A stretch of 57,540 nt of DNA from Actinomycetota bacterium (GTDB lineage Bacteria; Actinomycetota; Actinomycetes; S36-B12). This document shows, one piece after another, positions 7,562 through 15,511 of this stretch. Below the pieces are notes generated by a model, which searched no databases, was not told the DNA's origin, and worked only from the letters and a program-made list of their open reading frames with translations. Where the stretch lies: NCBI GenBank assembly GCA_027729805.1, contig JAQCEO010000005.1:1-57540 (forward strand). Reading direction: 5' to 3'. Each line of letters opens with the position of its first letter. The stretch's first letter is position 1. Position numbers and translations under genes: made by a program.

Positions 7562-7927
7562 TCAATCGAGCTGGCCGAGTGCTCGCAATCTGGCCCGACC
7601 GCGAGCGGCTCTACGCAAATCATCGGAGGACGCATCGGTCCTAGCGGAGTCCGCGTCGATCTCTGATTCAAATTCCGCCGACTCCGCCAAGATGGTTACA
7701 CCTGCTTCGGTAACAGATAGGTAGCCGCCGTCAACCGCGATGCGCAAGTCATCCTCACCTTCTCGCTCCACCCGGACCATGGCATCGTCGACGAGTCGGG
7801 CTACCAGCGGAATATGGCGAGGCAGGATTCCGATATCACCAGAGGTAGTGCGGGTAAAGAGGAAAGTCGCCTTACCCGACCAAATTTTGCGTTCGACAGC
7901 GACAATTGTTACATCCAAGTCGGCCAT
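7562..7927 (-). CDS. atpC: ATP synthase epsilon subunit (mycobacterial-type, 121 aa)
   Basis: [28 protein letters not shown]; short C-terminal domain. Confidence 0.95.
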
Positions 7928-7960
7928 CTCACCACACCCTTCGACGCAGCCATGTTCGCA

Positions 7961-9415
7961 TCACAAAGTGACGCCGTAACTTGCGGCCTTCTTCGCTAAG
8001 TCATCTAGGCCACCGATCAGGAAGAACGCTTGTTCCGGAACATGGTCGAAATCTCCTTTGCAAATCCTGCCGAATGCCTCGATATTTTCTTTGAGTGGCA
8101 CGGTGGAACCAGGCTGGCCGGTGAACTGCTCAGCCGCCATCATGTTCTGGCTGAGGAAGCGCTCAATACGTCGAGCCCTGTTGACCAACTGCTTGTCCTC
8201 CTCGGACAACTCATCGATACCGAGAATCGCAATGATGTCCTGCAGGTCCTTGTACCGCTGCAAGATCCGAATTACTTCCTGGGCAACGCGGTAGTGCTCC
8301 TCCCCCACGATGGCCGGGTCCAAAATCGTCGAACTCGACGCCAATGGATCCACCGCTGGGAAGATGCCCTTGGAGAACACTTTGCGGGAGAGTTCCGTGG
8401 TGGCGTCGAGGTGGGCGAAGGTGGTGGCAGGTGCCGGGTCCGTGTAGTCATCGGCGGGTACATAAACGGCCTGCATTGAGGTAATGGACCGACCGCGGAC
8501 GGACGTGATCCGCTCCTGTAGCTGACCCATTTCATCCGCCAAAGTCGGCTGGTAGCCCACCGCCGATGGCATTCGGCCCAAGAGGGTGGAAACCTCAGAC
8601 CCCGCTTGGGTGAACCTGAATATATTGTCGATGAAGAGCAGCACATCTTGCTTTTGAACGTCGCGGAAGTACTCAGCCATGGTCAGGGCCGAAAGCGCCA
8701 CCCGCATACGGGTGCCCGGCGGTTCATCCATCTGGCCGAAGACCAATGCGGTGTCCTTGAGGACATTCGCGTCCTTTAACTCCACCCATAGGTCATTTCC
8801 TTCGCGGGTGCGTTCTCCCACCCCGGCGAACACCGAGGTGCCACCGAAGTTACGTGCGATGCGGTTGATCATCTCTTGGATGAGCACCGTCTTACCAACT
8901 CCCGCACCGCCGAACAGAGCGATTTTCCCACCACGGACATAGGGGGTGAGCAGGTCAACAACCTTTAAGCCGGTCTCGAGCATCTCAGTGCGCGGCTCGA
9001 GCTCGTCGAAGGAGGGCGGTGGACGATGGATCGGCCACCGCTCGAAATCTGCACCGTAGCCAGGTTCGTCTAGGCATTGCCCCAGCGAATTCCACACATA
9101 TCCCTTGACACCATCACCTACCGGCACCGTGATGGGACCACCAGTGTCGATCACCTCGGCACCACGCACCAGACCGTCCGTGGGCTGCATCGAGATCGTG
9201 CGCACGAGGCTGTCGCCGAGGTGCTGCGCAACCTCTAGGGTGACCGTCTTTGCCATTGCACGGTAGGTGATCTCCACACGTAGTGCATTGAACAGTTCGG
9301 GTACGCAGCCGCGAGGAAACTCCACGTCAACCACGGGACCGGTAACGCGAACCACGCGGCCTGCCGTCTCGAGGGTGCTGCTGAAAGTGCTGTCGGTCTC
9401 TTGGGTGACGGTCAT
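7961..9415 (-). CDS. atpD: ATP synthase beta subunit
   Basis: GGAGVGKT P-loop, GERTREG, DELSEED. Confidence 0.98.
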
Positions 9416-9439
9416 GTTCCTCTTCGCTTCCTTCGTGTT

Positions 9440-10363
9440 CTATCGGACGGCATCGGCTAGGGCGTTCGCCCCGCCGACGATTTCGCTTATTTCTTGGGTA
9501 ATCTGAGCCTGACGTTCGCGGTTGGACATCAAAGTTAGCGCCTTGATGAGATCATCCGCGTTGTCGGTGGCCGCCTTCATTGCACGGCGTCGGGATGCTG
9601 ATTCTGAGGCGGCCGATTCGAGCAGTGCTGAGAAGATTCGGGTAGCCACATATCTTGGCAACAGTGATTCAAAGAGCAAGCTGGCATCCGGCTCGAAGGA
9701 GAACAAGGTCGCCGGGCCGTGGTCTCCCTCAACGTACTCAACTTCCATCGGCGCTATCCGTCGAGCCTCCGCGTTTTGGGACAGCATTGACCGGAACTCG
9801 GTAGAAATGAGATGCAGCTCATCCACCCCCAAGATGCCATCCGCACCTGGTTCGTCGCCTTCGTCGTCGGCCCCCGCGAGGAAAGCCGCAACCAATGAGT
9901 CGGCGATCTCCTGGGCGTTCTCATAGGTCGGCCTTTCGGAGATCCCCACCCAGGAACTGGTGATGACCCAATTGCGGAAACTAAAATAACTTAGAGCTTT
10001 ACGTCCGATCACGTAAATGACCGGAGTCTTGCCCTCCTGGCGAAGTAGCGATATCAACTCTTCCGCGAGACGCAACACATTTGCGTTGTAACCACCGCAA
10101 AGGCCCCGATCCGATGTCACCACCAGCACCCCGGCGCGCTTGGGGTGGGCCCTGGGCACCAACAACGGATGATCAAGGGCAGATTCGGTTGCAAGATCTG
10201 ACAACATGTTGGTAATTTCGATCGCGTACGGACGGGCTGCTTGGACCCGGGCCTGAGCCTTGGCTATCCTCGATGTGGCGATGAGCTCTTGGGCCTTGGT
10301 GATTTTTTTGATCGACTCCGCTGAACGAATTCGTCCGCGAAGTTCGCGTAATGTCGCGGCCAT
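9440..10363 (-). CDS. atpG: ATP synthase gamma subunit with mycobacterial loop
   Basis: [23 protein letters not shown]; insertion [15 protein letters not shown]. Confidence 0.97.
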
Positions 10364-13925: not shown

Positions 13926-13931
13926 TGCGAC

Positions 13932-14183
13932 TCAGGAAGCCCCTGGTGTGGCGAACACGAACAGCGCCATGAACGCAAGGTTAATGAAGTAGGCCGCTTC
14001 AACCAAGCCGACCGTGATGAAGAACGGCGTGAACAAGCGACCCTGTGCCTCAGGCTGACGAGCGATGCCGGAGATAAGCGCATTACCAGCGATACCGTCG
14101 CCGATTCCTGCACCGATGGCACCGCCCCCTAAAATTAGGCCACCGCCGATTAGTGCCCCGGCCACGATTATTGGGTCTGCCAT
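13932..14183 (-). CDS. atpE: ATP synthase c subunit
   Basis: [28 protein letters not shown]. Confidence 0.98.
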
Positions 14184-14261
14184 TACTTTTCCTCCTTGAT
14201 TGATTGTCGGTTTGCTGTCAATTTGGCTGGACTGTAATGCTCCGTCAAGAGTGTCCTTATT

Positions 14262-15023
14262 CTAATGATGCGCATCTTGTGTCTCCGTGGCCTGGCTGAA
14301 ATACAGAATAGTTAGCAGCGCGAAGATGAATGCTTGAATCAGTCCCACGAAGAGATCGAACGTTTTCCATAGTGCGTTGGGAGCCCACATGATGTAGGTG
14401 GGGAGCAAGGCGATCAGACCCACCATGATGACACCGGCGAATATATTGCCGAATAGTCGCAGCGACAACGAGATAGGTTTAGCAATCTCCTCAACGAGGT
14501 TGATCGGCGCCAGAAATGCAACATGGCCTTTGGCGACCTTTATCGGGTAGCCAATGATGCCGCTACGCCGAAAACCCGCCGTGTGGTAGCAAATGAAAAC
14601 TAAAAGTGCGAGCGCCAGTACAAAGTTGATATCGGATGCCGGAGGTTTTAGTAACTCCAGCGTAGCTCCATCAGCCGACGTGTACTGCACTGGCAGCACC
14701 GATATCCAATTCGCTACCAGGATGAACACGAATAGGCTTACCACGAGGGGCAGCACGAATGGTGCAAGTGACAGACCCATTGATGACTGGACCTGCCCTC
14801 GCATTTGAACGGTTACGGCTTCCCAGAACAACTGCACACCACTAGGCACACCGGTAGAGGTGACCTTGGCGCGCAGAATGAAGGCTAGGACTAGGGTGAC
14901 GGCCGCTGCTAATGCGGTCGCGTAGATCGTGTCTGTGTTCACGGTCATTCCCAGCCACGTGGCCGTAGTGTGGTGACCAACCTCAATCGAACTCACGGGC
15001 AACGTCGCGTTCACCATCCCCAC
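14262..15023 (-). CDS. atpB: ATP synthase a subunit
   Basis: [30 protein letters not shown]; start may be ATG at 15017. Confidence 0.97.
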
Positions 15024-15511
15024 TACGTCCTAGCCTCAGGCTCTGCGCTCACGGACTGGCTCGCCACTTCGGTTGGGTCCGGCGTTAGGGCGTCGTCCGG
15101 ATCACCTTTGCGAATCTTTCGCCAGACCGGGATGACGGTGCTCAGCACCAAGACCACCTGAAACAGCGCTATTCCAAATAGCACACCGAACCCAAAGGGT
15201 CGAAATACGAAAGCAAGGACGAGCGCGATAATCGTGATCACCAGGAGTCGAGTCGCTGAGTTCAGCGCCATCCCGCGCTTGAGTGGGTGATCCTTCGCGG
15301 TGATCGTGGCCACCGACCAACTCACCACCTGCGCATTGAGCAGGCCCAAAGCCATGCCGATGGCAAAGAAAACGCCAAACATGACCGCGCCAGCCAGCGC
15401 CGCCAGCACGATCGCCACACCACCAATTGCGATGCAGAATATGGCGAGCCGTGCCGGTTTAAAAATCACGGACGGTAGTACAAAAGGCGTCTCATCACCT
15501 GGCGCCGACAA
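15023..15511 (-). CDS. atpI: ATP synthase protein I (Rv1303-like)
   Basis: 4 TM helices, [10 protein letters not shown]-like segment and ALNSATRL typical of the mycobacterial family; AGGAGG RBS upstream of TTG. Confidence 0.85.

Follow-up and report, generated by a model that had tools for sequence, protein, structure and literature searches.

Among co-adapted core machines, ATP synthase is a standard textbook case, and it is expected to be vertically inherited. Here we describe the F1Fo ATP synthase (atp) operon at 7562-15511 of contig JAQCEO010000005.1, a stretch of 57,540 nucleotides (nt) from a non-mycobacterial actinobacterium; the whole stretch is hereafter called the window. The comparisons below indicate that the native atp operon of this host was very probably replaced, whole and in place, by a nine-gene operon derived from Mycobacterium.

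The closest described system is the mycobacterial F1Fo enzyme. Electron cryomicroscopy of the Mycobacterium smegmatis ATP synthase is reported to show a peripheral stalk formed by b′ and b-delta, and C-terminal tails of the alpha subunit that, bound to gamma, prevent the enzyme from turning in the direction of ATP hydrolysis (bioRxiv 10.1101/2020.08.06.225375). A nine-subunit c-ring, with the lowest reported proton cost per ATP, is described for the mycobacterial enzyme (10.64898/2026.10.01.756066), and a nine-subunit c-ring together with latent ATPase activity is reported for M. smegmatis and M. phlei (10.1101/2020.08.06.225375; 10.64898/2026.10.01.756066). The operon in the window has the same gene set and gene order, including b′, the b-delta fusion, the gamma loop, an epsilon of 121 amino acids (aa) and the conserved alpha tail. 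It differs in that it lies in a host of a different order, between the host's rfe/glyA and cobA/murA genes, with codon use and guanine plus cytosine (GC) content shifted toward those of the host. Its b-delta, b′ and atpI products have diverged to 44-65% identity.

Transfer of complete rotary-ATPase operons has been described elsewhere. Whole atp operons were horizontally transferred among Thaumarchaeota, where a variant clade unites distant hosts (Wang et al., 2019, ISME J, PMC6863869). N-ATPase operons of the F-type have spread by horizontal transfer (PMC10656485), and bacterial A/V-type operons have also been transferred whole (10.64898/2026.10.01.756066; PMC10656485). The thaumarchaeal case and the present one share the movement of a complete operon, a conflict between the ATPase tree and the organism tree, and a patchy distribution. 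The former concerns A/V-type enzymes of archaea from acid or pressure niches, whereas an F-type enzyme was here exchanged for another F-type enzyme between two orders of Actinomycetes, at an identical locus and with alternation inside genera. The N-ATPases, or "alternate F1Fo" enzymes, are encoded by extra operons beside the resident enzyme, whereas the operon described here is the only one of its genome. Xenologous gene displacement in situ is a concept that reportedly goes back to Omelchenko and co-workers in 2003. Likewise, a foreign orthologue stands here in the place of the resident within a conserved neighbourhood, but all nine genes of a machine were displaced together and not one gene inside an operon. 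A search of the full-text literature, supplements being outside it, gave neither an account of a Mycobacterium-type operon from a different actinobacterial order nor one of an F-type-for-F-type replacement segregating within genera.

Gene content of the operon

Nine intact, closely packed atp open reading frames (ORFs) were found on the minus strand in the order atpI-B-E-F(b′)-H(b-delta fusion)-A-G-D-C, within the coordinates given in a preliminary description made from the letters of the window. Eight of the products were assigned by NCBIfam as F1Fo epsilon, beta, gamma, alpha, B/delta fusion, B, C and A. All 16 window proteins used for comparison were searched against 80 named loci of alpha relatives, 33 syntenic relatives and 26 further loci, which include Mycobacterium-type loci and loci of the host family with the native type of operon. 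In summary, the operon's products shared 57-99% identity with Mycobacterium proteins, and about 25-75% with those of the other genera in the host family. The nine genes are as follows.

15023..15511, minus strand: atpI-like small membrane protein, first gene of the operon, 162 aa; no NCBIfam family; Pfam ATP-synt_I below threshold
14262..15023, minus strand: atpB, Fo subunit a; TIGR01131, 128 bits; 65-78% identity to Mycobacterium, 24-29% to native family loci
13932..14183, minus strand: atpE, Fo subunit c, 83 aa; NF004532, 157 bits (cut-off 120)
13398..13925, minus strand: atpF, peripheral-stalk subunit b′, 175 aa, between c and b-delta; NF004412; counterpart at the same position in Mycobacterium
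12057..13391, minus strand: atpH, b-delta fusion, 444 aa, single uninterrupted ORF; NF009961, 559 bits (cut-off 328)
10363..12054, minus strand: atpA, F1 alpha; TIGR00962, 806 bits; 77-85% identity to Mycobacterium, 68-75% to native family loci
9440..10363, minus strand: atpG, F1 gamma with a Mycobacterium-type acidic loop; NF004145, 423 bits (cut-off 317)
7961..9415, minus strand: atpD, F1 beta; TIGR01039, 809 bits; 85-91% identity to Mycobacterium, 71-75% to native family loci
7562..7927, minus strand: atpC, F1 epsilon, 121 aa, short C-terminal domain; NF009977, 91.8 bits (cut-off 80)

The native operon of the host family, as read in genome G177, has a different make-up. It consists of two atpI-like genes, followed by those for a, a c subunit of 75 aa, b (182 aa), delta (269 aa), alpha, gamma, beta and a roughly 130-aa epsilon, and b and delta are separate genes in the native relatives. 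The c subunit of the window was 83-100% identical to those of Mycobacterium-type loci, and its near-identity to mycobacterial AtpE, put forward in the preliminary description, held at 98-99% for several of the nearest Mycobacterium loci and at 90% for M. leprae; identity to native family loci was undetectable. Identities to Mycobacterium and to native family loci were 70-84% and 45-50%, respectively, for gamma, and 73-89% and 35-48% for epsilon, where a single native fragment of 31% coverage gave 53%. The b′ product shared 44-62% identity with the Mycobacterium gene in the equivalent position. The b-delta protein aligned end to end with the "subunit B/delta" model NF009961 (1-444 of 445 profile positions, no internal stop) and was 48-65% identical across Mycobacterium-type loci and 60-65% to the nearest metagenome-assembled genomes (MAGs) of Mycobacterium; b′ and the 444-aa fusion stand side by side, as first described. 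The atpI product, which had been called Rv1303-like, was 48-60% identical to the ORF 5′ of atpB in Mycobacterium loci and unmatched in native-type family loci; its only family match was to Pfam ATP-synt_I at 21.7 bits (cut-off 25.1).

The alpha gene probably starts at the ATG at 12009 (548 aa) and not at the listed GTG at 12054 (563 aa), because all relatives align from the former; the first 15 codons would then be untranslated. The NCBIfam "alternate F1F0" (N-ATPase) models all scored far under their cut-offs (for example, beta with 553 bits vs 752). A scan for promoters and terminators gave two promoter-like and six terminator-like sites, and shuffled sequences gave 3.0 and 7.1, so that there was no excess of either.

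Mycobacterial features of the encoded subunits

In alignment, several of the features put forward as mycobacterial hallmarks proved to be shared with Mycobacterium. The acidic insertion of gamma aligned with that of Mycobacterium and was absent in six native gammas of the host order; looser versions of this loop also occurred in Rhodococcus, Pseudonocardia and Corynebacterium. An epsilon length of 121 aa was common to the window and each of the nine aligned Mycobacterium-type rows, compared with 129-138 aa in native epsilons. The alpha tail extended about 36 residues past the TIGR00962 match, aligned with the tails of Mycobacterium, and its terminus was identical to that of L006, one of the nearest loci in the trees described below. 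Among the loci compared, uninterrupted b-delta fusions were confined to Mycobacterium-type loci and to the foreign cassettes of the host order.

Candidate b-delta fusions in Amycolatopsis, Lentzea, Saccharopolyspora, Actinokineospora, related uncultured or unclassified loci and genome G037 were rejected, as the matches of 440-470 aa hold an internal stop. In many Pseudonocardiaceae loci and in G037 (together L054, L057-L066, L068, L070-L073, L076 and L114), b and delta lie in the same frame, one stop codon apart. A single base change in such a pair would yield a b-delta fusion like that of mycobacteria.

Flanking genes and junctions

Both flanks of the operon are of the host type. The genes beyond atpC (5623..7549) and beyond atpI (15619..20854) and the two junctions are as follows.

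5623-6930, minus strand: murA
6974-7549, plus strand: PduO-type cobalamin adenosyltransferase gene (cobA; Pfam Cob_adeno_trans, 208 bits)
7550..7561: right junction, a 12-nt spacer between the convergent stops of cobA and atpC
15512..15618: left junction, a 107-nt spacer from the rfe stop to the atpI start, whose sequence was inspected
15619-16740, minus strand: rfe
16771-18081, minus strand: glyA
18082-18786, minus strand: sua5
18798-19784, minus strand: hemK/prmC
19781-20854, minus strand: prfA

The identity pattern of all seven flanking genes was opposite to that of the atp genes. Rfe was 72-84% identical to family relatives vs 44-49% to Mycobacterium, PrfA 74-81% vs 59-64%, and MurA 69-79% vs 59-62%. 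The rfe product begins with MREYLL and glyA lies between sua5 and rfe, both as described beforehand, and glyA was missing at this locus in 43 of 43 Mycobacterium-type loci. The gene order rfe, operon, cobA-murA is common to the native-type and the Mycobacterium-type loci.

The limits of the exchanged segment could be seen in a same-genus pair, G176 (foreign operon) and G177 (native operon). The flank DNA of the two is 84-86% identical; homology ends about 30 nt past the rfe stop and restarts about 32 nt past the atpC stop. No pair of direct repeats brackets the operon in the window, the sole tRNA of the window is at 32138 with none at the junctions, and there were no integrase-like ORFs, every ORF between rfe and cobA being an atp gene. 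Sliding identity in three same-genus pairs revealed no imported flank tracts beside the cassette. A comparison of the rfe-atpI spacers from eight loci of the family and five of Mycobacterium detected no homology across genera, and the original junction is therefore not reconstructable from them.

Phylogeny and direction of transfer

Trees were built from hand-picked sets of 50, 37 and 44 rows out of 142-146 loci, in addition to a FastTree analysis of 128 rows. To be included, a locus needed at least 85% coverage in the F1 set, at least 80% in the five-gene flank set or, in the set of seven flank genes, five or more of these at 75% coverage. In the FastTree analysis of alpha, beta and gamma, the 19 foreign-type rows of the host family formed one clade (support 100) within Mycobacterium, sister to L006, L007 and L041 (99), and the native operons of the family clustered with other families of their own order. 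IQ-TREE with 50 rows was in agreement with this. In the seven-subunit tree (37 rows), the family clade (100) was again sister to L006/L007/L041 (100), and together they fell into a 20-row clade with L004, L005, L009, L012 and L017 (100). Monophyly of the 23 Mycobacterium rows to the exclusion of the family rows was rejected by the approximately unbiased (AU) test with seven subunits (difference in log-likelihood, lnL, 54.5; p = 0.0058).

The flanks gave the opposite picture. In the flank tree, 34 rows of the host order, the window among them, formed one clade (100), and Mycobacterium, Rhodococcus and Pseudonocardiaceae made up a separate one of 49 rows (100). The flank trees also placed the window in its own family and genus with full support (100 for the genus). 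The MAGs related to the donor clustered within Mycobacterium in the flank tree and are thus ordinary mycobacteria by their flanks. Forcing all 19 host-family rows into one clade in the operon tree was rejected (delta lnL 998, p = 1.1e-104). Phylogenies of operon and flanking genes had been proposed as a check of the displacement, and in the trees built here the flanks branched outside Mycobacteriaceae and the Atp proteins apart from the host order. Because the operon trees nest in Mycobacterium and the flank trees in the host order, the transfer very probably ran from Mycobacterium to the host lineage. These opposite patterns of identity and phylogeny in the operon and its flanks support the wholesale displacement in place that was proposed at the outset.

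Host and donor belong to the same class and to different orders. A sample of 401 genomes of the class gave 14 further gamma matches of 70-81% identity, all in genus g96 (4.4-6.5 Mb, another family); judged by these identities, the g96 genomes are evidently the mycobacteria. The other six matches were those of the host genome (G000), G021, G560 and three at 59% identity. G560 was rejected as a further recipient, since its two short contigs are ordinary Mycobacterium DNA with 85-89% nt identity to Mycobacterium MAG loci. G560 itself is a 3.9-Mb genome of another family, and its Mycobacterium-type atp contigs C76 and C85 (L143 and L144) are probably either mis-binned or truly mycobacterial DNA.

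Assembly, copy number and composition

The window is contig C9 of G000, a genome of 2,030,120 bases in 92 contigs with 96.2% completeness, 0.6% contamination and a mean GC content of 58.6%. The host is a small-genome actinobacterium of aquatic and estuary metagenomes. The stretch was present in six runs from two studies, and contigs from the independent study cover 6000-9818 (nine mismatches) and 14233-16395 (seven mismatches) at more than 99% identity. As these contigs cover both ends of the operon, both junctions are bridged. In run X4, a 384-nt bin was uncovered and no listed contig of this run spans a junction (record 23 begins inside the left spacer). The identical layout was assembled in five other species of the genus (G003, G004, G008, G010 and G011). 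The check for a chimeric assembly at the junctions thus ended in favour of a genuine locus, with both junctions spanned independently and the layout recurring in at least five congeneric species.

Only one alpha gene is present in G000. A tblastn search with ten native-type proteins against G000, which is 96% complete, gave nothing outside this operon and no native remnant, and the second atp operon that had been considered was not found there. Likewise, 24 of the 25 family carriers of the foreign type had a single gamma match.

The composition of the operon is that of its host. GC content at third codon positions (GC3) was 58-71% in the atp genes vs 55-74% in the flanks, and the tetranucleotide correlation of the operon lay at the 10th percentile of 381 genome windows and was no outlier. 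Among leucine codons, CTA and TTA made up 14.2% and 4.6% in the atp genes vs 15.2% and 8.0% in the flanks. The overall GC content of the operon was 58%, as in the host, compared with 62-68% in the nearest Mycobacterium loci of the trees. The ratio of nonsynonymous to synonymous substitution rates (dN/dS) within the genus was 0.009-0.19, and dS was similar to that of the flanks. On the basis of GC3, tetranucleotide signature and dN/dS, the operon is old, compositionally ameliorated and under purifying selection; the host-like codon style noted by eye in the preliminary description is borne out by these measurements.

Distribution in the host order

The host order comprises 390 species genomes in 10 families, including a sister family of 93 species sampled at about 1.5-1.7 Mb and 49% GC. 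This profile, together with the aquatic and estuary habitats, may point to Nanopelagicales. Apart from G000, a Mycobacterium-type gamma occurred in 24 of its 172 relatives within the family, and the nine remaining families, with 218 genomes, contributed a single case. Of the 173 family genomes, 150 had a gamma match, and 25 of these 150 were of the foreign type. By genus, the foreign type was distributed as follows.

Genus of the window (g1): 11, including G000
g8: 5 of 23
g10: 2 of 5
g11: 2 of 10
g6: 2 of 28
g13: 1 of 2
g27: 1 of 2
g28: 1 of 7
Eight further genera: none

A search for the b-delta fusion returned the same carrier genera. All 11 other genomes of the window's genus had at least one foreign-type atp gene and no native-type match; the foreign operon is fixed in this genus and is the only ATP synthase of the cell. 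A survey of sister genomes, suggested for the same swap, thus found it throughout the genus and in minorities of seven more genera. These results demonstrate that the swap is not private to this genome but is a dimorphism across the family.

Wherever the contig sufficed, the cassette was located between host-type rfe and cobA/murA (G176, G179, G122, G089, G021, G145, G018, G075, G080 and G054). In a seven-gene flank tree of 39 loci, at least five changes of operon type were required, each forced by well-supported branches. The pairs G021/G149 and G176/G177 had a flank protein identity of 92-93% (five-gene set) and an F1 identity of 66-67%, with opposite operon types, and G089 and G090, which also differ in operon type, were sister rows in the flank tree.

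Relics and hybrid loci

Possible traces of the exchange were found in a few MAGs. The relic-bearing MAGs were 83-98% complete with contamination of up to 7%, and each case needs confirmation. In G191, a member of a second family (f10), the 4.3-kb contig C284 (L145; 2596-4066) carries foreign-type atpG-atpD-atpC genes. These are followed by a cobA with its middle deleted, then by the 3′-terminal 72 codons of a native-type atpD, and finally by a native-type atpC of 99 codons. The cassette of G191 was sister to all family cassettes (93). This locus looks like a replacement caught with its leftovers, in a MAG of 83% completeness and 6% contamination. In G021 (C40, L092), the rfe-atpI spacer (about 12370-12807 of the locus) is approximately 450 nt long vs 107-212 nt in the other genera, and within it a 165-nt segment matches the 3′ end region of the native atpI-like gene of the sister species G149 at 87.5% identity.

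In G186 (C75, L146 and L122; 1-14399), a flank of genus g28, with cobA and acyl-CoA dehydrogenase genes, is joined to a cassette of the type found in the window's genus. The flank has 66% GC, GC3 values of 78-87 and 87-89% nt identity to G183, and the cassette has 58% GC, GC3 values of 62-72 and 83.6% nt identity to G004 and is nested in g1 (98). No native relics were found in the 1.4-kb unmatched spacer of G186. A recent transfer between genera or, alternatively, a chimeric contig would account for this locus.

A further candidate, a hybrid native/foreign atpD in G063, was rejected as a true mosaic. In contig C148 (L128), atpD is native-like up to about residue 240 and 100% foreign-like thereafter, and this switch coincides exactly with the end of contig C231 (L127), which probably reflects co-assembly of two co-occurring strains. 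The bin of G063, with both operon types, hints that both occur in one sample.

Origin of the operon and alternative explanations

In the sequence of events that we propose, the native F1Fo operon would have been displaced as a unit between rfe and the pair of the cobalamin adenosyltransferase gene and murA. The incoming cassette would have been complete, with atpI, a, c, b′, b-delta, the tailed alpha, the looped gamma, beta and the short epsilon, and its source would lie within the Mycobacterium radiation, closest to the small clade of environmental MAGs. A single entry into the host order is envisaged. In seven other genera, foreign and native operons alternate at one locus between fairly close species, and at least some of this alternation may stem from later movement of the cassette between genera. 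The joint arrival of all subunits would have kept the subunit contacts, and the exchange of so integrated a machine would therefore be possible.

Several observations weigh against this account. Native alphas of the family likewise carry a C-terminal tail of similar length and other sequence, and therefore tail sequence, not length, is diagnostic; of the alpha extension put forward in the preliminary description as a hallmark, the Mycobacterium-like sequence stands and the length does not. The b′ product scored 150.6 bits on NF004412, slightly under the cut-off of 156, and one NCBIfam model for epsilon scored just under its cut-off. All IQ-TREE runs were "quick" searches under LG+G4 with support from the Shimodaira-Hasegawa-like approximate likelihood-ratio test (SH-aLRT) only. 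With alpha, beta and gamma only, a monophyletic Mycobacterium was not rejected by the AU test (p = 0.278); the nesting within Mycobacterium depends on the seven-subunit set, and the group tested was defined after a tree had been seen. No RNA run was among those listed as containing the stretch, and function was wholly inferred from sequence.

The result for the three F1 subunits, which allow the family clade to be sister to all sampled Mycobacterium, is also what would favour a reverse or vertical history, in which the b′/b-delta type is ancestral in the host family with Mycobacterium as the recipient, or in which the "native" type is the incoming one. We regard such a history as very improbable. 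Seven subunits reject the monophyly of Mycobacterium, and the family clade lies three nodes deep, beside MAGs with ordinary Mycobacterium flanks. Moreover, the fusion is present in 43 of 43 Mycobacterium-type loci vs 25 of 150 family genomes, and the phylogeny of the native type agrees with that of the flanks in each of the order's ten families. Even less credence can be given to a chimera of assembly or binning, in which a mycobacterial piece was joined to host flanks or a contig was mis-binned. Faults of this kind do occur in other MAGs, such as G063 with its two operon types and hybrid contig, and G560 with contigs close to Mycobacterium MAG loci, but the operon described here lies on a 57.5-kb contig with host genes on either side, its junctions are bridged by independent contigs at 99% identity or more, five congeneric species share the layout, and in GC, GC3 and tetranucleotide use the operon is like the host and unlike the nearest Mycobacterium loci. 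Separate captures from Mycobacterium by each genus would account for rfe-atpI spacers that range from 107 to 453 nt without detectable cross-genus homology, and for the native atpI-like relic in G021, which is lacking in other genera. This scenario is also unlikely, if somewhat less so than the previous two, as the family cassettes and that of f10 form one clade that excludes every sampled Mycobacterium (100 for the family, 93 with G191), the G191 cassette is attached to a cobA fragment of the host-order type, and the G186 cassette is nested within genus g1.

With replacement by a Mycobacterium-derived operon as the preferred reading, two origins of the dimorphism have to be weighed, repeated recombination of the cassette between genera and a single ancient entry followed by long co-existence and differential sorting. 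The balance between them is about even, and both may be true. Recombination is favoured by G186, with its g28-type flank beside an unameliorated g1-like cassette, by the cassettes of g11, which exceed the flank GC3 by 13-19 points when the native operons of that genus exceed it by 6, and by the lower divergence of cassettes than of native operons between genera (for example, an F1 identity between g10 and g11 of 89.9% vs 84.9%). On the other hand, the completeness of the G186 MAG is 87% and its contamination 7%, 1.4 kb of unmatched DNA lies at the junction, and the rates of the two operon types may differ. Ancient entry and sorting are consistent with the host topology, which the cassette data did not reject (p = 0.32), with flanks that are genus-specific right up to the cassette without imported tracts, and with a cassette GC3 that follows the host GC3 in g1, g8, g10, g6, g27 and g13. 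A more far-reaching idea is that of a long-lived, selectively maintained dimorphism of the locus, with two non-interchangeable whole-operon "alleles" moving by recombination across at least eight genera and a second family; we put this forward tentatively, as a possibility about which we are more doubtful than confident. If true, lineages would alternate between two energy converters that differ in gearing and in regulation, and the benefit could be a fit to the energy or oxygen regime or an escape from natural inhibitors of one type.

Expected function and significance

By analogy with the characterised systems, the enzyme should function like the mycobacterial one. Its sequence identity suggests that it would work with a b′/b-delta peripheral stalk, and the alpha tails, as in M. 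smegmatis, would latch onto gamma and so prevent both rotation towards hydrolysis and the waste of ATP. The near-identical c subunit suggests a small c-ring and a low proton cost per ATP.

The exchange of nine genes at once between orders, at the original site and still segregating within genera, constitutes a natural experiment on the replacement of a complex. Features deemed specific to mycobacteria and regarded as drug-target hallmarks, namely the b-delta fusion, the putative alpha latch, the gamma loop and the c subunit, are also encoded in harmless small-genome aquatic bacteria, which bears on the range of environmental bacteria that inhibitors of the mycobacterial enzyme might act on. 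Pairs of sister species with the ordinary and the mycobacterial-type enzyme could show what the mycobacterial design is good for.

Neighbouring genes

Beyond murA, the window contains the following genes.

705-2504: fused double 3-hydroxyacyl-CoA dehydrogenase
2525-3208: NucS
3199-5232: methylmalonyl-CoA-mutase-family gene with a B12 domain
5304-5630: ORF of 108 aa, without a Pfam match

The label DUF6104 proposed for the 108-aa ORF was not confirmed. The meaA gene named in the preliminary description would correspond to the mutase-family gene listed above, which was identified by its MM_CoA_mutase domain.

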